From assembly GCF_030013205.1 (NCBI RefSeq), contig NZ_CP122648.1: DNA of 64,000 nt; one strand, given 5' to 3'. A program made the position numbers and the translations under genes. This document shows positions 629 through 60,138 of the stretch, one piece after another. The first letter of the stretch is position 1; the number at the start of each line of letters is the position of its first letter. The notes beneath the pieces are model-generated. The model was not told the DNA's origin, made no database searches, and saw nothing but the letters and a program-made list of their open reading frames with translations. Source of the stretch: Escherichia coli. Lineage in GTDB: Bacteria; Pseudomonadota; Gammaproteobacteria; Enterobacterales; Enterobacteriaceae.

Positions 629-1630
629 TTACTCTACTGGCTCTTTTTGTTCAGTGAATGCCATGTTAGCTATCGGGTTAAACCTCATGGCATCCGCCAG
701 ATAGTCGGGGGAAAAATGCGCATAAGTCATCGTTTGCTGGATAGTCGCATGTCCAAGAATCCGTTGTAATGTAACGATATTCCCACCGTTAATCATAAAG
801 TGTGTGGCAAATGTATGACGCATGACATGCGTAGCCTGCCCCTTCGGTAAATCCGGCTTCACCTCCTGAAGGATCTCCCGGAACTTCAGATAATCAACCT
901 GATACAACAACCCCGTCCGGCGGGTCTTAATCAGCGGCACGACCGAATCAGCCACAGGAACCGAACGGGATTTTCCGTTTTTGGTGTTAAAGAACGTCAC
1001 CCGGTTGCCAATGATGTGCTCTCCACGTAGTTCCGATGCTTCACTCCATCGGGCACCAGTAGAAAGACACAGAATGGCAACACGACGCGCATCACCCTCC
1101 AGTCGCTCAAGAAGCCGCTCAATCTCATCATCAGAAAGAAAGGCCATCTCTGTATTCTGAATTTTTAGCTTGCGTATACCGCGTACAGGGTTCGGGTTGT
1201 GAAAGACCTCAGCTTCAATCAGCACCGTGAACATGGTAGACAGAACGCACAAGTCACGATTAATGCTGGATGGCATTAAGCCGGCCTGTAATTTCTCTGA
1301 CCGATACTCAAGCATAAATTTTTGCGTCATCTGGCTGGCACGCGGATCTCCCATTTCACGAATCACTTTCTCCATCCGGATCCTGTAGGTATCACCGTAA
1401 GCCTGGTTACGGCCATCAAGCATCCACCATATATCAAGCAGCTCTGATAATCTCCGTCGATCAGCAGGTTTAGCCAGCCATGGGTTGTTATGGAAATTCT
1501 GTAAAATATGTTCTTTGAAGGCCTCCGCACTCCCTTTCCTGACAAAAATTTTACGTATCCGTTTGCCGTACGCCCCTTGGGGCCTGATATCGAGCAGCCA
1601 TCGCCCATCATCCATCTTTCTGATCGACAT
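629..1630 (-). CDS. int: tyrosine recombinase, P2-type phage integrase family
   Basis: 333 aa; N-terminus and C-terminal HxxR...Y catalytic region (HTFATHFMINGGNIVTLQRILGH...YAHF) resemble P2 Int; ATG and TAA verified on minus strand. Confidence 0.85.
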   Translation of the reverse strand: MSIRKMDDGRWLLDIRPQGAYGKRIRKIFVRKGSAEAFKEHILQNFHNNPWLAKPADRRRLSELLDIWWMLDGRNQAYGDTYRIRMEKVIREMGDPRASQMTQKFMLEYRSEKLQAGLMPSSINRDLCVLSTMFTVLIEAEVFHNPNPVRGIRKLKIQNTEMAFLSDDEIERLLERLEGDARRVAILCLSTGARWSEASELRGEHIIGNRVTFFNTKNGKSRSVPVADSVVPLIKTRRTGLLYQVDYLKFREILQEVKPDLPKGQATHVMRHTFATHFMINGGNIVTLQRILGHATIQQTMTYAHFSPDYLADAMRFNPIANMAFTEQKEPVE

Positions 1631-1632
1631 AC

Positions 1633-4302
1633 TTAAGCCCCCTCCTTGTTACTAAATATCCAGCATTTCAATACCTCCTTCTCTCTGGCCTCGGCTATTC
1701 CCCTCCCGGCGTTCGCCTGTCTGGATACCTCGCTACGGACGGGCTTGTATCCAATCAGCGATCGAGAACGGCCAGCCTTGAGAAGCTTTATCATTTCGGG
1801 ATTGGTTTGGGTCTTCACGTGGTGAACGGCGGCAACCTGCTCAAGTTGCGGGATACTGACGGCAAACTCATTCTGCCGTCCCTTGCCAAAATGATTTACG
1901 CCGTATGCTGTGATGCCGTCCAGATAGTCGAACGCCTCCCAGAACGCCATCACTTCCGGCAAGTCATCCATTACCGCTTTAGCCTGCTCCTCTGCCATTC
2001 GCTCCAGTTCCAGACATGTGGCATCAAGCCATTCATCCGGGATATCAATAACGCATTTCAGCGCCCTGACCAGTGCAATTAGTTGCGCGTGATTTTTGGC
2101 AATACGCTGATGGCGAATATTCTCGCAACCGTAAAGGCGGGTTGTTTCAGAATCCGAGAGTGCCATAAACAGATCCATAATCGCCCGCTCCTGGCTTACT
2201 GCCCGATGGATAAAACCTGATACCTGCTCAACGGGGTAAAGCTCCAGCCGTTTTGCTGCCAGTCGGCTATCTGGTGAGTGGCGTTTTTTATCGGTGTATA
2301 TACGTACCAGACGCTCGATAATTGCCGATGAGGCGTTTACCGTGGCATTCTGCGCAATCACGACAGCCCCTTTAAAAACGGGGTCATATGTGGCGTTATC
2401 ATTAGTTTTAACACCACGTACCCCAATACCACCGCCGTTATAGAGGCTTTTCAGGTTATCAAAGTCAAACGCACCTCTTTTTTGCGCATTGTCCCCCCGG
2501 TCTGCTTCAATCAGAACAACAGGTAATCCGGCGACCTGTCCAAAAGTTCGCTTCCAGCCTGATTCCGATCCTTTGGTTGGATCAACACCTTCATAGTTGT
2601 CACGGCCACACAAACGCCAACAAAAATCAATCAGCGTTGTTTTACCCGTTCCAGGCTCTCCGGTAATCTCAAGAAAAGGGTAAGACGTGTTTTTCTGCCT
2701 GATTTGTTCGCTGAACAACGAACCCAGCCAGAAGGCCAGGGTAATAATTCCCTTTTCACCAAAAGCCAGCCAGAGATCTTCCACCCAGGATATTGTGAAT
2801 TTATCCGGTTTTTTATAGTTAATCTGCAATATTGGTTTTTTATTCAATGGTTTTGCGTTTATGCCATCAATTTCAAAATAATCCTCTTCATTGATTTCGT
2901 AGGTTTTACCATTACAAACCGCGACATCATTAAACAGCCACGCGCCAATCTCTTTGTTGTATCCGATAAAATCCTGACCGATAACATTTTTTATTGCGGG
3001 AAGGTCATTTTTTATTAATGCATCAAGGTGCGCAGTCGTTCCGGTATAAATACCGCCTTTTGCCACATGCAACAGGCGTTTTTTAAATTCAGATGCGGAT
3101 GTTAATTGTCCTGATGTAAAGGTGTTTTTCACCGTCGCACCATCCGGGAACGTAACACGGAAGTAATACCATGCTTCATCCGTGTCATTGTTTCGAATGT
3201 AATAAAGCGGCGCCGGGTTACAGTTTGCGATTTCTTTTACAGCGCCGGATTCCTTAAGTGCAATTTTGCGCGCTTCATCTTCGTCAACATTTCGCTCATT
3301 TATGACGCGTTCAACAGCCTTCATATGGCGCTCAATATCCAGTTTGAACCAGAAAACACGGTTATCAAAAGTAAAATGAAATTCCTTTCGCTCACGAAAG
3401 GAAAACATTATCAGCGCCTTATCTCTCGGAGATTTTGCCAGCAATAAATCACCGTAATAACGGTATCTTTTCACATCATGGCCACGCAGCTTTCCGGCGA
3501 TGTGTAAATCATTCCAGTCGCGTTTATTGCTGTTTTTTCCTGGTAACGCCGCTGCCGTTCTCCAGCCGTCTTCGGCGCTGCGTTCTGCATGTTTTTTCGC
3601 ATAACGCTCACCCGCACGCCCGTTATCCAGCGCCCACACGATAACCGGACGGGGATTATCCCCGCACAGCTTCGCCAGCTCTTCCAGCGCCTTATCAGGG
3701 TAGTTTACGGCAGACATGACAGAAACGGCCGCAATGCCATTCTGGTTAAGGCTGATGGCATCAAAGATACCCTCACAAATCCAGATTTCTTTGGCCTTGC
3801 TTAAATCATCTCCCGGATAAGCCCACCACAACCCCTTGTAGCTGCCGGAAAAATTCGCCTTGCGCGCGAAGCGTTCCGGTCGGTCTATGATGCGCTCCCA
3901 CCACACGCCGTCAGCCAGTGTAAAACGCACAGTAGCGGCCTGTTCGCCGCTTTCCTTGTCCTGGTATCGCTCCTGAGTAAATGCTCCCTTCAGTGGCTCC
4001 ACAGCAATATTGCGTGCTTCCAGAAGATAAGCTGTCGCCGCTGCGTATGGATTGTCTTTCGTGCTGATATAGCGATCTGACCATGATGAAAACACATCCG
4101 GGTAAAGTTCTTTGGTCAACAGGTCTGTACCGCATTTATTTTCGCGCCCACAGTGCACGATGTACGGCCTTTCAAGGCTGGTAAAGAGCTCCTTCTTTCC
4201 ACATTGCGGACAAACACCATACCGGAGGTAGTTATTTTCTTCTTTGAAGTTGTAATCACGGATAAGACGGTTAATAATCTCTTTTCTGGTGTTATGTTTC
4301 AT
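1633..4302 (-). CDS. replicative primase-helicase (N-terminal zinc ribbon, TOPRIM-like primase core, C-terminal P-loop NTPase)
   Basis: 889 aa; CPQCG...HCGREN zinc motif, WICEGIFDAISL, Walker A GEPGTGKTT; stop lies 2 nt from integrase start. Confidence 0.8.
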   Translation of the reverse strand: MKHNTRKEIINRLIRDYNFKEENNYLRYGVCPQCGKKELFTSLERPYIVHCGRENKCGTDLLTKELYPDVFSSWSDRYISTKDNPYAAATAYLLEARNIAVEPLKGAFTQERYQDKESGEQAATVRFTLADGVWWERIIDRPERFARKANFSGSYKGLWWAYPGDDLSKAKEIWICEGIFDAISLNQNGIAAVSVMSAVNYPDKALEELAKLCGDNPRPVIVWALDNGRAGERYAKKHAERSAEDGWRTAAALPGKNSNKRDWNDLHIAGKLRGHDVKRYRYYGDLLLAKSPRDKALIMFSFRERKEFHFTFDNRVFWFKLDIERHMKAVERVINERNVDEDEARKIALKESGAVKEIANCNPAPLYYIRNNDTDEAWYYFRVTFPDGATVKNTFTSGQLTSASEFKKRLLHVAKGGIYTGTTAHLDALIKNDLPAIKNVIGQDFIGYNKEIGAWLFNDVAVCNGKTYEINEEDYFEIDGINAKPLNKKPILQINYKKPDKFTISWVEDLWLAFGEKGIITLAFWLGSLFSEQIRQKNTSYPFLEITGEPGTGKTTLIDFCWRLCGRDNYEGVDPTKGSESGWKRTFGQVAGLPVVLIEADRGDNAQKRGAFDFDNLKSLYNGGGIGVRGVKTNDNATYDPVFKGAVVIAQNATVNASSAIIERLVRIYTDKKRHSPDSRLAAKRLELYPVEQVSGFIHRAVSQERAIMDLFMALSDSETTRLYGCENIRHQRIAKNHAQLIALVRALKCVIDIPDEWLDATCLELERMAEEQAKAVMDDLPEVMAFWEAFDYLDGITAYGVNHFGKGRQNEFAVSIPQLEQVAAVHHVKTQTNPEMIKLLKAGRSRSLIGYKPVRSEVSRQANAGRGIAEAREKEVLKCWIFSNKEGA

Positions 4303-5121: not shown

Positions 5122-5304
5122 TTACCCCTCCATGATTTTTACTGCGCATTTGTGGGTTAATCGCCCCTGTTCATTCGTGCGGCTGTACTCCATGCGGCTG
5201 GCAGCACGCAGGGCATCATCACAGGTCTGATATTCCCTGACATGAAAAAACTGACGAACGTCGCCGCTCTGGCAGTTAATCAGGGTGATAAGGAGCTTAA
5301 ACAT
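5122..5304 (-). CDS. hypothetical small protein, about 60 aa (MFKLLITLINCQ...)
   Basis: ORF track 5122..5382; ATG overlaps stop of upstream 57-aa ORF (ATGTTTAA). Confidence 0.4.
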   Translation of the reverse strand: MFKLLITLINCQSGDVRQFFHVREYQTCDDALRAASRMEYSRTNEQGRLTHKCAVKIMEG

Positions 5305-5470
5305 TGCACGCCTCCCGGATACGAATACGGGCAACAGAGACCAGACGGGATGCCGGAAGCAGGGCGCGCGCTTCGCGCTCACTGGCGGCGGTAACGGTAT
5401 GAAGGCGGATATTTTTACCGTGGCACTGCATAAAGCGCCAGATAAAATCAGGGCGTGTTGATATAGCCAT
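5297..5470 (-). CDS. hypothetical small protein, about 57 aa (MAISTRPDFIWRF...)
   Basis: C-terminal part of track ORF 5297..5824; ATG preceded by AAGGAG; upstream part of the track ORF judged noncoding. Confidence 0.4.
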   Translation of the reverse strand: MAISTRPDFIWRFMQCHGKNIRLHTVTAASEREARALLPASRLVSVARIRIREACNV

Positions 5471-5594
5471 TTTGGCGGCTCCTTTGTCTAATTTACGGAG
5501 TCTCGCCAGCACGCTGCTAAACATGGTGGCGGGACGTAACAGGGTTAGCAGACTGGTGACAAAGAAACCAGCAGGCCTTACGGCCTCCCCATTA

Positions 5595-5718
5595 CGCCCC
5601 GCCATAATACGGGAAAGGGTGGTATTACGGGCACAAAAAAACCGCATTACGGAAATATAGCGGCTACCCGCTTTGTCAATCAGGCTGCTAAACCCGGCAC
5701 CCGCTTTATGAGGTGCGG
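5595..5718 (-). ncRNA. conserved three-block noncoding element, copy A (hairpin, then T7-terminated block, then ATTATGGCGGGGCG on minus strand); candidate sRNA or leader attenuator
   Basis: blocks CGCCCCGCCATAAT, GCACAAAAAAACCGC and CAGGCTGC.AAACCCGGCACCCG.TT..TGAGGTGC recur in same order and similar spacing at 59946-60075. Confidence 0.4.
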
Positions 5719-5865
5719 GCAAACGATACGCCATGACAAAAAAGCGAGTCAAGCAATATTGCAAATTATTTTTGCGTGATTGCGCTGAGTAATTGATTTT
5801 TAAGAGTAAAAAAGCCATAATCATTTCTGCCTATTATTTCTTATTGTTGGTTTCAGGTGCACTAA

Positions 5866-55282: not shown

Positions 55283-56242
55283 TTACTCCTTGTCCATTGC
55301 GTACAGCCCATTAACCAGAGCAAACTGTGGCACCCCGTCCGCGATGAAAGTCGCATTAACTCCGCAGGCTTCGCGGATAGCGGGTGCCACAATCTCCGCC
55401 CCGCCACCGACAACCATCACCCGCCCGTAACCCGAAAAACCCGCCAGCGCGCGGATCACGCGTTGTTTCAGTGTTTCTTCCTTTTCACGAATAACCGCCA
55501 TCAGGCTGGCGTAATGCGCGTCATTGTGGATGTGCTGGCGCAGCCAGGCTTCATCATGGCGATGTTCGATAATGGTATTGGCGATGTGGTGACTGGTACG
55601 CATACCGTTAGTGGCCATCACCGACAGTACGGCATCGGCCATCAGGGAAACGCCTACGTGTGGATCGCAAAACACCTGGCTGATACCTGCCAGTTGTCCC
55701 TGAACCTTTGCCACATCCAGCGTGGTTCCGCCTAAATCCACAATCAGCAGGGATTCAAACGGACTCATGTCAGCCAGTGCTTTAAAGCCAGCCGGAATGG
55801 ATTCAGGCATAACCCGTACGTTACGGATAGTGAATGCTTCGCCGTTCTGGTACTCCACCGGGCGCATGACGTTCGCTTTTTTGCGGTTGATGTTGGCCAT
55901 GTCCGGCTGTGCGTTTGTGTCGAAATATTCGCTCAGTGGCAGGGTGACAACCACATCCACTTCCTGTGGTGTGATGCCTGATTTGACCAGCGCGTGATGA
56001 ATGGCAATGACATTCACATCGCTGTACTGGTATTGCGTGTCGGTCGTCTGGACAAAGCGATCGCTGACCGGATCAAAACCATAGCGCACGCCATCAAGCA
56101 TGTAGTTCGCGGGCTGCGTGCCACCGAACGGCGCAGACCATTCCGACTTGAAGCTGTTCGGGCTGATGGCGTTGCGGCGTTCGCCGTTCTCAGTCCATGC
56201 CAGCTTGATGTTGGTGGAGCCGTCATCGATACAAATTTTCAT
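55283..56242 (-). CDS. ParM/StbA-like actin-family ATPase
   Basis: 319 aa; N-terminal MKICIDDGSTNIKLAW and LIVDLGGTTLD phosphate-binding motifs as in plasmid R1 ParM. Confidence 0.75.
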   Translation of the reverse strand: MKICIDDGSTNIKLAWTENGERRNAISPNSFKSEWSAPFGGTQPANYMLDGVRYGFDPVSDRFVQTTDTQYQYSDVNVIAIHHALVKSGITPQEVDVVVTLPLSEYFDTNAQPDMANINRKKANVMRPVEYQNGEAFTIRNVRVMPESIPAGFKALADMSPFESLLIVDLGGTTLDVAKVQGQLAGISQVFCDPHVGVSLMADAVLSVMATNGMRTSHHIANTIIEHRHDEAWLRQHIHNDAHYASLMAVIREKEETLKQRVIRALAGFSGYGRVMVVGGGAEIVAPAIREACGVNATFIADGVPQFALVNGLYAMDKE

Positions 56243-56272: not shown

Positions 56273-56383
56273 GCTTACGGGATTCTGAAATCCCGTTTTT
56301 GCCTGTTTTATGCGCGCTTCATATATCGCGGCGCGTTTTTTGCTCATTTACGGGATTTGTGAATCCCGTTTCTGTCTGTTTTT
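56273..56383. repeat. two about 37-bp direct repeats, each a hairpin followed by a T-run (ACGGGATTCTGAAATCCCGT TTTTGCCTGTTTT; ACGGGATTTGTGAATCCCGT TTCTGTCTGTTTTTT)
   Basis: seen in sequence upstream of parM-like gene, second copy inside 3' end of A. Confidence 0.5.
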
Positions 56384-59141
56384 TGTTTCCACTGGTCAGG
56401 CCTCCCCGCAGCAGGTCTGCTTTGCGGCGGGCGCGTTCAGTGGTTTCACTGATTCTCTGTGCGTGCTCTGCGTCGCGGATGGCGCGCAGCATGTCAGAAA
56501 GCACGGTAACGGGTGTTTTCATGGTGTTCTGGTCCTGCTGAAGTGTGGATGCCAGGCGTGCGGCGGCTTCGGGGTCTGATGCCCCCAGCTGTTCCAGATA
56601 GCTGGCGACCGGGTTATGGCGGATCTCCGTGCTGCTTACGCCGTGGTTACGGCTCAGGCGCTGCCAGAGCTGCGTGATCCGGCTGTCCGGTCGGGTATCC
56701 GGTTTGCGTACAATTTCAAATCCCTGCGGTGCAATGATGCTGCCGTCGACGTACAGACTGCCGCCCCGTAACAGGTGCTGCATCTGCTGTTCACCGATAT
56801 GCAGGCCGAGAGATTCAGCAGACTCCCGCCATTCTTTAGCGAGTAACTCGTGGTTATCAGGCAAAGGCCGTGGCTGTTTGCGGCTCTGTGTCCAGTTCTG
56901 CATTTCATCACTGCTGTTTTTTGCCTGTTTGTCACGCAGCGAACGCATCAGCGCCCGGCGTTCGTGCCGTTTCAGTGAGCGCATCCATTCATTCACGTCA
57001 ACGCCGTCAGGAAGCTGCGGCCACGGTGCTGGCCGTTCTTCCGGCTGTTCTGTCCCGTTGTTGTCCGTTTCCTGTACACGGGGACAGTTATTGCCACGAG
57101 TCCAAGGGGCGGCAGGGCCGCCCTGAAGGTCAAAACCATTTTCGCGGGCGCTGTCTTCCGCTTCCGGTTTACGTCTTACCAGCTTCCAGTTATCCGGATG
57201 TGTGCACACACGGGAAGACTCCCCGATGAGCGGTGACCAGATCCCGTAAATCTGTACGCTCTGTTCGCCGTAATCGTTCAGCTCATCTGCGAGGTCGTAG
57301 GCGGTGCGAATCAGGTAGTCTTTGCGTGGAACAAGTACGCCGCCCTGTTTTTCAATGTAGGAGGCAAAACACCCGGCATCAGCGGCAGCGAGCACTGCAT
57401 CCATTGCGTCATCCTTCAGTCGTTGCGGGCCTTCCGGGTTGCGTGCCATCTGGCTGGCAAGGCGGCGCAGTTCACGCCACACCTGACGGGAGGGGATGCC
57501 AAAGAACTGGAACTGGCGGACCCGGTGAAGGCGCGCCCAGCCGATGGCGCGCTCCACGCTCTCGGCCATTGATTTTCCGGTTTCGTGGTCAACGCGTGGC
57601 TTGCCCGTTTTCGGGTCGATACCATCCACGGCGCGGCTGTCCAGGTTCTTTCCGATGTAGGTGGCGATGTAGCTGGTTGGCGTGCCTTTTGAGCCGTCGA
57701 CGTACTCCGCCTTAAAACGCGGAGTTATGTCATCGCCCAGCTCGTGGCGGTCTTCCTGAATGGCAATATCGCAGACGTGGGACACGATGGTTTCAATCTC
57801 GTCCGGATGTGCAAAGACCATCATATGCCAGTGCACAGTGCCGTCATGGTGAGGCTCCACCGTGCGGATGCCATACCAGCGAAGACCGTCGCGGTTCAGT
57901 TTTTTGCGGACCGCCGCAAAAAACGTGTTAACCAGGTAATCGCTGGAGTCGCGCATGGTGGCCCCGTTCCATTTGGGATTCGGATGACCGTTCTCTGTTG
58001 TGGCGTGGTATTTTGACGGGCAGGTGACAGTCAGAAACACCGCTCTGTCGCCACGGGCTTCGGCCAGAAGTTCCAGTCCCTTCATGGTGGCCATCATTTC
58101 TGCCTTACGGTGAACCGGGTTACTTACTCCCGCGTAATACACCGTCTCGAGATCAATCGTGAACCCGTCTTCATTTTCCAGCATGAAACTTTTCAGGAAA
58201 TCGCGTGTTTTCTCGCGCTGTGCGCGAAACTCGCTTAACGCGTCCTGGCTCAGATAGGGTGATGTTTTTCTGGAAACCAGACAGGCGGCGCGGAGTTGTT
58301 CTTCTCTCCACTCGCAACGTAACAGCCACAGTTTGCGTTTCCACCATTCCGCACAGGTCAGGCGAAGGATTGCGCCCGGCAGCAGCTCCGTGTCCGGTTC
58401 GTTCCTCCGGTCTTTGTCTGTTGTCAGTGCGTCATAATGTGGAGGCATGGCGTGCAGGTGTAACGCCATGCGGGCCAGCATCTGATACGCCTTCAGCGTT
58501 ACATCCATGGTCAGTTCGCCATCAGTAGCGCCAAAGCCATCGCAGAGTTTTTCGAAGGTGCTGCTGAACATCGCCGCCGTCATGGTGGCCAGCGTCTGTA
58601 TCTGGTGTTTGTTGAGCTGCGGCAGGTAAAGCAAATCGTCCAGGCGTTCGCGTCCGGCAAGGGAGCGATAACCCGGTGTCAGCCAGCGGTGATCGGTGCG
58701 GTCCAGACGTTCGAATATTTTGCGCAGGGTTCCGCGCGCGTAGCGTTCCGCCTGCCAGCTCTTTTTGCCTTTCTGACGATCGGCTTCCTGCTTCTTGCGC
58801 AGGAAGGAGAGGTGGCGAATAAGCGGATCGCGCAGATAGGACGGCAGCAGGCGCAGCGAGGCCATGGCTTCATCCACCGCGCCGCGTGCCTGTTTTCTGG
58901 CGTCTCCTGCCAGTGTGATGGTTTTGTCCTGTTTTTCCTGTGCGTCCAGGCTTTTATTAATCAGGTTGCCCAGCGGCGTGGCGGAGAACGCCGCATCAGC
59001 CATTTCCTGGCGGCGCTCGTTCTCTACCCGGTAGGCATCCAGCCAGGAGGAAAGCGCGGATTCAGGAGCGGAGATCCCCGTTCCTTCACGCCCCACTGCG
59101 TGGCGCGGTTGTTGCCAGTCCCTGATGTACTCTGCCGTCAT
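56319..59141 (-). CDS. A: P2 gpA-like replication initiation endonuclease, extended (940 aa)
   Basis: rolling-circle Rep motifs and tyrosine region; about 180 aa longer than remembered P2 A. Confidence 0.85.
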   Translation of the reverse strand: MTAEYIRDWQQPRHAVGREGTGISAPESALSSWLDAYRVENERRQEMADAAFSATPLGNLINKSLDAQEKQDKTITLAGDARKQARGAVDEAMASLRLLPSYLRDPLIRHLSFLRKKQEADRQKGKKSWQAERYARGTLRKIFERLDRTDHRWLTPGYRSLAGRERLDDLLYLPQLNKHQIQTLATMTAAMFSSTFEKLCDGFGATDGELTMDVTLKAYQMLARMALHLHAMPPHYDALTTDKDRRNEPDTELLPGAILRLTCAEWWKRKLWLLRCEWREEQLRAACLVSRKTSPYLSQDALSEFRAQREKTRDFLKSFMLENEDGFTIDLETVYYAGVSNPVHRKAEMMATMKGLELLAEARGDRAVFLTVTCPSKYHATTENGHPNPKWNGATMRDSSDYLVNTFFAAVRKKLNRDGLRWYGIRTVEPHHDGTVHWHMMVFAHPDEIETIVSHVCDIAIQEDRHELGDDITPRFKAEYVDGSKGTPTSYIATYIGKNLDSRAVDGIDPKTGKPRVDHETGKSMAESVERAIGWARLHRVRQFQFFGIPSRQVWRELRRLASQMARNPEGPQRLKDDAMDAVLAAADAGCFASYIEKQGGVLVPRKDYLIRTAYDLADELNDYGEQSVQIYGIWSPLIGESSRVCTHPDNWKLVRRKPEAEDSARENGFDLQGGPAAPWTRGNNCPRVQETDNNGTEQPEERPAPWPQLPDGVDVNEWMRSLKRHERRALMRSLRDKQAKNSSDEMQNWTQSRKQPRPLPDNHELLAKEWRESAESLGLHIGEQQMQHLLRGGSLYVDGSIIAPQGFEIVRKPDTRPDSRITQLWQRLSRNHGVSSTEIRHNPVASYLEQLGASDPEAAARLASTLQQDQNTMKTPVTVLSDMLRAIRDAEHAQRISETTERARRKADLLRGGLTSGNKKQTETGFTNPVNEQKTRRDI

Positions 59142-59147
59142 AGTGAT

Positions 59148-59513
59148 TTACTTCGTCATGCCATTCAGGGTGTCGCGGCAGACTGTAGCCAGCCGCTGAA
59201 TTTCCAGCACGGTGTCTTCTGTGTCGGCATGGCGATGTGTGATGCGGATGCTGTCGGCAATCACATCGACGATTGCAGAGGATGGGCGCTGGTAAATGCC
59301 AATAACGGACGGGGTGCCACCTTCAATGCGGTAAAGCCTGTAATTTCCCTCGTGGCTGTCAATCATGTAGCGACCATCAATAACAATCTTTCCGTCAGCG
59401 AGCTGCGGTACAGGCAGGGATTTCAGGTACATGTCATAACGATCACGCACGCGAGCGGCAAGATCACGCTCTGTGTTGAGCAGGTATTCAAGAAAGTCGT
59501 TGGCGAGAATCAT
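59148..59513 (-). CDS. hypothetical early-operon protein, 121 aa
   Basis: ORF track; immediately upstream of A. Confidence 0.5.
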   Translation of the reverse strand: MILANDFLEYLLNTERDLAARVRDRYDMYLKSLPVPQLADGKIVIDGRYMIDSHEGNYRLYRIEGGTPSVIGIYQRPSSAIVDVIADSIRITHRHADTEDTVLEIQRLATVCRDTLNGMTK

Positions 59514-59585
59514 TGCGGCAATCCTCTTGTTACAGATGTGCGAAGGCCTCCCGCCGCAAGGTGCAGGAAAGGCCCGGAACAGGAA

Positions 59586-59816
59586 TTAATGGAGTTTGTT
59601 TTGCTGCTGGATGAGCTGTTGAAGCTCGTGCAGATCATCCGCCAGATAGCTGAAAACAGAGGCGGAATAAATGTTTGATAGTGCGTGGCTGCGCTCATGC
59701 AACATATTGATGTGCATGATTTGCGCGACGCGTGATGCGCGGGAAAGTCTGCGGTTGATTTCAGTCTGGATGTGACGACGCTCCGCGATAGCGCGGTGTG
59801 GTTTGCGGTTTGCCAT
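59586..59816 (-). CDS. hypothetical early-operon protein, 76 aa
   Basis: ORF track. Confidence 0.45.
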   Translation of the reverse strand: MANRKPHRAIAERRHIQTEINRRLSRASRVAQIMHINMLHERSHALSNIYSASVFSYLADDLHELQQLIQQQNKLH

Positions 59817-59945
59817 GGTGTGGCCCCTTGTGTAGTAAGTTGTGAAAACTCACCATCCAGAGCTGCGAAACTGTGGGTGGCGAGACGTACGAGGTTCGCA
59901 GTACCGGCTACACAAGAACCCGGCCCGACCGAAGTCGGCCCCGTA

Positions 59946-60075
59946 CGCCCCGCCATAATTCTGACGCGAAAAAAACGTGGCAATACAGTACGCACAAAAA
60001 AACCGCTGGCGCGGTTGTGCGCTTGTGTAGTCAGCAGGCTGCGAAACCCGGCACCCGTTTTGTGAGGTGCAGCGG
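59946..60075 (-). ncRNA. conserved three-block noncoding element, copy B (candidate sRNA/attenuator; minus-strand hairpin plus ACCGC-GCCA-GCGGT-T7 terminator)
   Basis: same three blocks as 5595-5718 in same order; track ORF 59510..60127 judged a spurious translation. Confidence 0.4.
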
Positions 60076-60138
60076 AAATGTAACCTGACTGATTGCGGCA
60101 TGGCAAGCGGTTTTTTTGTGTGTGCATGTTCTGGTTTC

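Follow-up and report, generated by a model that had tools for sequence, protein, structure and literature searches.

IsrK-C4-type antisense RNA cassettes upstream of replication genes in an argW island and a P2-family prophage of Escherichia coli

The two loci and their RNA elements

The window, i.e. the whole stretch of 64,000 nucleotides of E. coli DNA that was analyzed, matches the swine ETEC strains K_EC180 and ETEC4079 at 100% and carries two copies of an RNA element on its minus strand, one in an island on the left and one in a P2-family prophage on the right. The left island shows the order tRNA-Arg, integrase, AlpA-like HTH gene, RNA cassette, Icd-like gene, small ORFs, and primase. 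In the K_EC180 annotation, this argW island goes on past the primase (window 629-1630, minus strand, and, beyond the left end of the window, locus L011 18201-21967) with a second tyrosine recombinase, an ogr/Delta-like zinc-finger gene, two hypothetical genes, and a P2-family major capsid gene, followed by a MazEF toxin-antitoxin pair and then intS of CPS-53. Unlike P4, it has neither sid nor psu annotated in this region, where the annotation places the ogr/Delta-like and P2-family capsid genes instead, and it resembles a capsid-encoding satellite of P2-type phages more than a classical P4 element.

The preliminary description of this DNA had reported three noncoding blocks lying in the same order at 5595-5718 and 59946-60075 on the minus strand, and both the order and the coordinates proved correct. 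Pairwise alignment of 5545-5770 with 59896-60125 (minus strand) gave 77% column identity. In the window, block 3, ATTATGGCGGGGCG, has its sole matches at 5595-5608 and 59946-59959, and the 27-nt hairpin block at 5690-5716 and 60044-60070; in 100 dinucleotide shuffles each was matched 0 times, none being expected by chance. A recent transfer between the left and right elements was considered and rejected, the two being only 77% alike and the left C4 being nearer to P1/P7 than to the right copy.

Scanning with the Rfam covariance models identified both places above the gathering score, with E values from 3e-8 to 7e-15. The isrK family (RF01394, gathering score 50) matched over its full length at 5716-5635 on the left (52.1 bits, barely over the threshold) and at 60070-59996 on the right (64.1 bits), and the C4 antisense RNA family (RF01695, gathering score 45) matched at 5609-5522 (79.7 bits) and 59960-59873 (83.2 bits), all on the minus strand. 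Blocks 1 and 2 are hairpin 1 and the terminator of the IsrK-type leader, while block 3 belongs to a second, longer RNA (C4) that had gone unrecognized: the blocks as first delimited take in the whole leader, but of the 88-nt C4 element they include just the initial 14 nt, and they omit the downstream target sites and the ribosome-binding site. The functional units, about 5752-5468 on the left and about 60106-59814 on the right, extend for another ~125 nt, as far as the start codon of the gene that follows.

Features of the left copy and its operon:
5723-5752, minus strand: sigma-70-like promoter TTGACT-18-TATCGT, a promoter-like site ending 7 nt before the leader 5' end
5635-5716, minus strand: IsrK-type leader (Rfam isrK, 52.1 bits, and folding)
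5716-5697, minus strand: leader hairpin 1
5696-5681, minus strand: leader hairpin 2, carrying a1
5691-5685, minus strand: a1, TTAGCAG
5678-5671, minus strand: b1, TGACAAAG
5672-5659, minus strand: alternative hairpin of the leader
5665-5640, minus strand: terminator stem, with a U7 run at 5641-5635
5522-5609, minus strand: C4 antisense RNA (Rfam C4, 79.7 bits)
5603-5525, minus strand: predicted mature C4 (homology with the annotated P1 c4)
5567-5557, minus strand: C4 b' loop, TTTCTTTGTCA
5551-5545, minus strand: C4 a' joint, CTGCTAA
5468-5521, minus strand: downstream target region
5520-5514, minus strand: a2, TTAGCAG
5488-5482, minus strand: b2, GACAAAG, overlapping the Shine-Dalgarno (SD) sequence AAGGAG at 5484-5479
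5470-5468, minus strand: start codon ATG of the first gene
5297-5470, minus strand: Icd-like small protein, 57 aa (NCBIfam NF033153, E 2.5e-12)
1633-4302, minus strand: toprim DNA primase, 889 aa (PHROG 1139, E 4e-302; annotated toprim domain protein)

Features of the right copy and its downstream genes:
60077-60106, minus strand: sigma-70-like promoter TTGCCA-18-TACATT, a promoter-like site ending 7 nt before the leader 5' end
59996-60070, minus strand: IsrK-type leader (Rfam isrK, 64.1 bits, and terminator scan)
60070-60051, minus strand: leader hairpin 1
60050-60035, minus strand: leader hairpin 2, carrying a1
60045-60039, minus strand: a1, TTCGCAG
60030-60022, minus strand: b1, CTACACAAG
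60016-60001, minus strand: terminator, with a U7 run at 60002-59996
59873-59960, minus strand: C4 antisense RNA (Rfam C4, 83.2 bits)
59954-59876, minus strand: predicted mature C4
59919-59908, minus strand: C4 b' loop, GTTCTTGTGTAG
59901-59895, minus strand: C4 a' joint, CTGCGAA
59814-59872, minus strand: downstream target region
59869-59863, minus strand: a2, TTCGCAG
59835-59827, minus strand: b2, CTACACAAG, overlapping the SD sequence AAGGGG at 59829-59824
59816-59814, minus strand: start codon ATG of the first gene
59586-59816, minus strand: P4-epsilon-like "derepression protein", 76 aa (Pfam PF25738, E 8e-8; PHROG 3688)
56319-59141, minus strand: gpA-type replication endonuclease, 940 aa (PHROG 91 "nicking at origin of replication", E 6e-275)

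Replication genes lie downstream of both copies, as had been proposed: a primase on the left (4302-1633) and a gpA-type nickase on the right (59141-56319). The Icd-like gene opens a compact operon whose last gene is the primase; the Icd-like stop codon lies 8 nt past the start of the following CDS, and overlapping or abutting small ORFs fill the interval up to the primase. The four small ORFs following the Icd-like gene had no family match, and none is Ant-like. On the right, family searches of the ORFs found no icd, and the first gene is epsilon-like, with 29% identity to P4 epsilon over 66 aa (E 4e-9); it is followed by an unknown ORF and then by the nickase gene. In P88, the counterparts of these two proteins are annotated as derepression protein and replication endonuclease, respectively. 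The right-hand identifications came from Pfam and PHROGs, NCBIfam having returned nothing useful on these ORFs. P88-type phages in GenBank (genus Xuanwuvirus, family Peduoviridae) carry a copy 100% identical to the right one, and the 50 nt upstream of the right copy are the same in P88 and Shae_phiSM.

The IsrK and C4 RNAs have been described as structural homologs of seqA and the CI RNA of P4 in P4-like prophages (PMC3632133), and the C4 and c4-a1b1 motifs were cataloged by Weinberg et al. 2010 (PMC2864571). When the Rfam models were run on fetched loci, isrK and C4 were found together in P4, P88, Shae_phiSM, and four lambdoid phages, and c4-a1b1 and C4 together in P1, P7, and D6; the P4 matches fall where the literature places seqA and the CI RNA. 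The c4-a1b1 model (RF03163) also matched both window leaders, below threshold (29 bits on the left and 20.9 bits on the right), and the isrK and c4-a1b1 models therefore model one and the same leader position. The GenBank record of P1 lists, in order, promoters, a1, b1, c4, a2, b2, icd, and ant1/2, and the left copy is homologous to the annotated c4 region of P1/P7, with 77-80% identity. By family and by arrangement, both copies belong to an already known and curated RNA system, an IsrK-type leader plus C4 as in P1/P4, and the order of their parts is that of a1-b1 / c4 / a2-b2 in the immI region of P1/P7 and of seqA / CI RNA / seqC in P4. In the Rfam clans, c4-a1b1 is grouped with C4 and isrK is in no clan. 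The left leader (5635-5729, minus strand) is a hybrid, with an isrK-type hairpin 1 and with a hairpin 2, a b1-adjacent hairpin, and a large-loop terminator that resemble those of P1/P7.

Complementary sites, covariation, and address diversity

The C4 element of the window lies ~25-35 nt past the leader and consists of a 17-bp acceptor-like stem ending in ACC(A) plus two hairpins. Its b' loop and a' joint are complementary both to the leader pair a1/b1 and to the downstream pair a2/b2, and all three site pairs are perfectly matched in both copies. The b2 site overlaps the SD sequence (AAGGAG on the left and AAGGGG on the right), 8-9 nt before the ATG. Pairing of C4 with its own downstream target is predicted at -19.9 kcal/mol for the left copy and -24.2 kcal/mol for the right one. 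Over 12 cassettes, pairing of a'+b' with the downstream targets reached -22.6 kcal/mol for cognate and -12.6 kcal/mol (sd 3.2) for non-cognate combinations, and with the leader targets -21.9 and -12.1 kcal/mol (sd 3.2), respectively.

This comparison was extended to 97 unique cassettes taken from the window and from loci L001-L131 (viral-contig scan), which hold 43 distinct (b', a') combinations; the sites in this 43-specificity set were parsed by a stem search, and P4 was kept only in the 12-cassette analysis. The cognate target was the best in its row for 37 of the 43 specificities with a2b2 and for 40 of 43 with a1b1. Covariation was counted on an alignment with one cassette per specificity (n = 43). 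In isrK, 6/6 pairs of hairpin 1 show compensatory changes and pairing reaches 99% there, vs 89% in hairpin 2; the 17-bp closing stem of C4 is 100% paired, its hairpin 1 shows compensatory changes in 5/5 pairs with 92% pairing, and its hairpin 2 is 100% paired over the 43 sequences. The long-range pairing between a1 and a' has both sides changed in 6/7 pairs and is 86% paired, vs ~41% with slid partners. The column counts for a'-a2 (67-70% paired) are depressed because the distance between b2 and the SD varies and MAFFT loses register. For the same reason, the varying b2-to-SD distance, the MAFFT columns do not hold b'/b1/b2 in register, and the b sites were judged instead by cognate vs non-cognate energy. 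In the alignment of the 43 cassettes, the ATG never varies and keeps a constant distance from the preceding b2/SD.

In seven sampled E. coli relatives of the island (L132-L138; window 5280-5830), the scaffold is 81-98% identical and the substitutions cluster in b1, b', and b2, which change together. At least five different matched b1/b'/b2 sequences are found there on a barely changed scaffold. The b site and its b' read as follows:
Window: GACAAAG / CTTTGTC
Relative L133: ACCAAAG / CTTTGGT
Relatives L134 and L137: GTAAGAG / CTCTTAC
Relatives L135 and L136: GTTAGAG / CTCTAAC
Relative L138: CAGATAG / CTATCTG

In L136, a1, a', and a2 have also switched together. These coordinated changes look like diversifying selection acting on the address, and they would provide a clean natural example, within one island lineage, of such selection on an RNA address by three-way site change. 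Diversification of this kind could guide the design of orthogonal antisense switches. The specificities look combinatorial, 34 b' and 17 a' alleles giving 43 combinations among the 97 cassettes. Cassettes with different downstream gene classes have 8 of the 17 a' alleles and only 5 of the 34 b' alleles in common, and the a' of the left copy is that of phage P7. A viral contig (IMGVR_UViG_2910425090_000003; L018 2410-2426 and 3415-3431, plus strand) carries two isrK-C4 cassettes ~1 kb apart with the same b' and different a'.

Long ORFs run across both elements, 5297-5824 (175 aa) on the left and 59510-60127 (205 aa) on the right, and the conserved sequence might accordingly be read as protein-coding. 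Both frames are open, and PGAP calls a 173-175-aa ORF "Icd-like protein" in every related E. coli genome examined. Nevertheless, we give hardly any credence to the idea that they are real genes. The 175-aa ORF has no Pfam match, and its similarity to the Icd-like family is confined to the C-terminal 57 aa; the two copies are set apart by indels of 10 and 7 nt; and the 205-aa ORF overlaps the well-supported epsilon-like gene in a different reading frame. In the 175-aa frame, variable columns at the three codon positions number 3/5/4 in isrK and 5/6/4 in C4, with no third-position excess, vs 3/2/7 in the Icd-like part, all of these being small numbers. The substitutions are compensatory in the RNA helices and in the three-way a/b sites. 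No conserved protein-coding frame runs across the isrK and C4 parts, the two copies are matched by RNA families, and the conservation is at the RNA rather than the protein level, as had been suspected from the patchy amino acid identity of the ORFs. The long ORFs across both elements are annotation artifacts.

Predicted regulation and alternative readings

C4 RNAs of the P1/P4 kind are cut by RNase P from the operon transcript and are stable and ~77 nt long; in the window, the trait of such processing that can be seen is the tRNA-like stem ending in ACC(A). RNase P processing and Rho-dependent polarity have reportedly been documented in P1/P4. Considering the features described above, each copy is very probably a self-contained antisense RNA immunity cassette of the P1 immI / P4 seqA-CI-seqC type. 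By analogy with these systems, transcripts stopping at the leader terminator would give a short IsrK-like sRNA, and read-through transcripts would be processed (by RNase P in P1/P4) into a stable C4 of ~79 nt. C4 would then pair with a2/b2 and prevent the first gene from being translated (an Icd-like gene on the left, that of an epsilon-like antirepressor on the right), and translational coupling together with polarity would keep the downstream primase or gpA off in the lysogen. C4 binding to a1/b1 of the nascent leader could also favor termination, like P4 CI at seqA. Alternatively or additionally, the short leader RNA may titrate C4, as in the case of Gifsy-1 IsrK. C4 is required for full repression of ant in P1 (PMC8198154), and P4 CI pairs with seqA and seqC, leading to premature termination (PMC4825925, discussion). 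The preliminary reading of the element as a candidate sRNA or leader attenuator fits with this scheme, the predicted products being a terminated leader of ~75-82 nt with a U7 run and an antisense RNA acting on a replication-gene operon.

To look at leader termination, the leaders were folded with and without masking of a1/b1, which mimics bound C4; this is an equilibrium proxy and does not constitute strong evidence. The probability of the outer stem of the left terminator was 0.01 in the free state and 0.93 with a1/b1 masked, and that of the right terminator, which forms either way, was 0.83 and 0.93; the terminator being defined from the masked-state structure, which favors that state, only the free-state probabilities are informative. 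On the left, hairpin 5672-5659 competes for the CCGC arm of the terminator and b1 abuts that hairpin, pointing to a predicted structural switch in which occupation of b1 would break up the competing hairpin. The mean terminator probability over 42 cassettes went from 0.62 free to 0.92 masked, with 15/42 below 0.5 when free. Since only these 15 cassettes show a clear switch, either the attenuator component is probably not general across cassettes or equilibrium folding is a poor proxy. According to these folding models, the P4 scheme, in which CI promotes termination at seqA, would fit the left copy only.

The main role of the leader could instead be that of a Gifsy-1-type activator, in which the downstream gene is turned on in trans by the short IsrK-like RNA, its target being either the folded, translationally inactive read-through mRNA or C4, so that the leader would be chiefly an inducer rather than an attenuator. 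The a1/b1 sites lie in the leader, so a terminated sRNA can pair with a'/b', and the right leader terminator looks constitutive by folding, which would yield abundant short RNA. In Salmonella, IsrK provided in trans activates orf45/anrP translation >100-fold, and STnc1160, a ~80-nt RNA from the read-through transcript, is complementary to IsrK (PMC4825925). On the other hand, the homologous seqA site of P4 is a target where CI promotes termination (PMC4825925), and the left leader has the predicted C4-dependent terminator switch. We hold the activator role only tentatively, as the lesser chance, and it is a variant of the immunity-cassette reading, not an exclusive rival. That the cassettes are decayed remnants, inherited fossils without present function, is worth asking since decaying modules are common in prophages and islands and the complete P1 gene set is absent from both copies, the left having an icd-like gene without an Ant homolog and the right an epsilon-like gene without icd. 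We judge this very improbable, however: neither copy shows a mismatch in any of its three site pairs, both retain promoter-like sites, terminator elements, and an undamaged ATG and SD, the right copy is identical to that of P88-type phage genomes, and coordinated site change is ongoing in the island lineage.

The preliminary description had further suggested that the shared element mediates cross-talk, i.e. that the C4 or IsrK-like RNA of the prophage acts on the targets of the island, or the reverse, which would couple the induction of satellite and helper or let the prophage repress the satellite. Both elements have the same chassis, the island resembles a satellite of P2-type phages and a P2-family prophage lies in the same genome, the a sites differ by one base (TTAGCAG vs TTCGCAG), and a related defense idea was floated previously (PMC3632133). 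The b sites, however, differ at several positions (GACAAAG vs CTACACAAG), and the computed pairings go against cross-talk. The left C4 pairs with the right targets at -12.0 kcal/mol (downstream) and -11.6 to -15.2 kcal/mol (leader), and the right C4 with the left targets at -13.9 to -15.3 and -11.5 to -14.9 kcal/mol, vs -19.9 to -24.2 (downstream) and -18.8 to -26.4 kcal/mol (leader) for the cognate pairs, the ranges reflecting two definitions of the site window. Taken together, cross-pairing stands at -12 to -15 kcal/mol vs -19 to -26 kcal/mol for cognate pairing. The cross energies fall at the 28th-69th percentile of non-cognate pairs from unrelated cassettes and resemble those of P1 x P7 (-11.0 and -16.4 kcal/mol), two phages reported to be heteroimmune via minor immI differences (PMC6906374). 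Moreover, no complete specificity is common to the epsilon-like and Icd-like classes in the sampled cassettes. The shared blocks are the structural scaffold (hairpin 1, terminator, and the acceptor-like stem of C4), with specificity residing in the sites between them, and since the addresses differ, direct RNA cross-talk is not predicted; we consider it improbable, and the two copies probably do not talk to each other. Given the different a/b addresses, each cassette is predicted to control only its own element, like the heteroimmune P1/P7.

A helper relationship between island and prophage is plausible, though not via this RNA as it stands. One might imagine that a satellite-like island and its likely P2-family helper use the same chassis with deliberately orthogonal addresses, and that partial recognition of the a site, or one to two mutations, could allow one element to sense or repress the other; we regard this scenario as unlikely. 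Such partial recognition is conceivable given that element classes exchange a' alleles and that a single base separates the a sites of the two copies. If the scenario were true, address switching would be part of an arms race between satellite and helper.

Relation to known systems and annotation

The cassettes of the window share further traits with P1/P7 immI besides the element order and the homologous C4: there too, a'/b' can pair with two sets of targets, one of which places b2 on the ribosome-binding site of a short opening gene (Icd-like on the left here), and a few bases decide the specificity, in line with reports on the heteroimmune P1 and P7. They differ in that immI has icd and the translationally coupled antirepressor genes ant1/2, whereas here no Ant1/2 homolog follows either cassette, the left one leading to the primase operon and the right one to the epsilon-like gene and gpA; moreover, hairpin 1 of the leader is isrK-type and not P1-type. 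As in P4 immunity, the left cassette lies upstream of a replication operon (primase) in an integrase-bearing island, an epsilon homolog stands downstream of the RNA in the right copy, and the cognate pairing energies are alike. In P4, however, the spacer between leader and CI is 107 nt vs 25-35 nt here, and P4 is a satellite while the right copy sits in a complete P2-family phage. With the Gifsy-1 IsrK / orf45 (STnc1160) / anrP region, they have in common the leader family, the three-hairpin architecture with its terminator, and a small first ORF that is coupled to a gene of the antirepressor type. In Gifsy-1, the leader is followed immediately by a processed ~80-nt RNA complementary to it, and C4, whose size is predicted, occupies the same place here. 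Gifsy-1 differs by its lambdoid host element and by its published mechanism, trans-activation by the short RNA. The isrK family is characterized by expression as a short Hfq-binding sRNA.

These results leave the known working of the system unchanged; their main value is that of a correction and of a detailed example. Blocks that look identical in two mobile elements can be mere scaffold, the short variable sites between them carrying the specificity. In standard annotation, these RNAs go unseen and spurious or over-extended proteins are called across them, which hides the regulatory logic of a common class of islands and P2-family prophages. The first ~118 codons of the "Icd-like protein" annotated at 5297-5824 (minus strand; L011 14007-14534) are in fact promoter, isrK leader, and C4. 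In the P88 record (L003 5033-5221, minus strand), a hypothetical CDS lies antisense to isrK-C4, and in lambdoid records (L007 846-1997), "antirepressor/Rha" CDSs are extended over both RNAs.

Finally, two observations concern the right-hand prophage. A complete P2-family (P88-type) phage has as the first gene under predicted C4 control a homolog of P4 epsilon, the helper-derepression protein of the satellite; the literature searched yielded no paper on such an arrangement. Just downstream of gpA, the prophage encodes a ParM-like partition protein (55283-56242, minus strand), and P88 has one annotated at the same place, which suggests that phages of the P88-type group may be capable of maintenance as plasmids.
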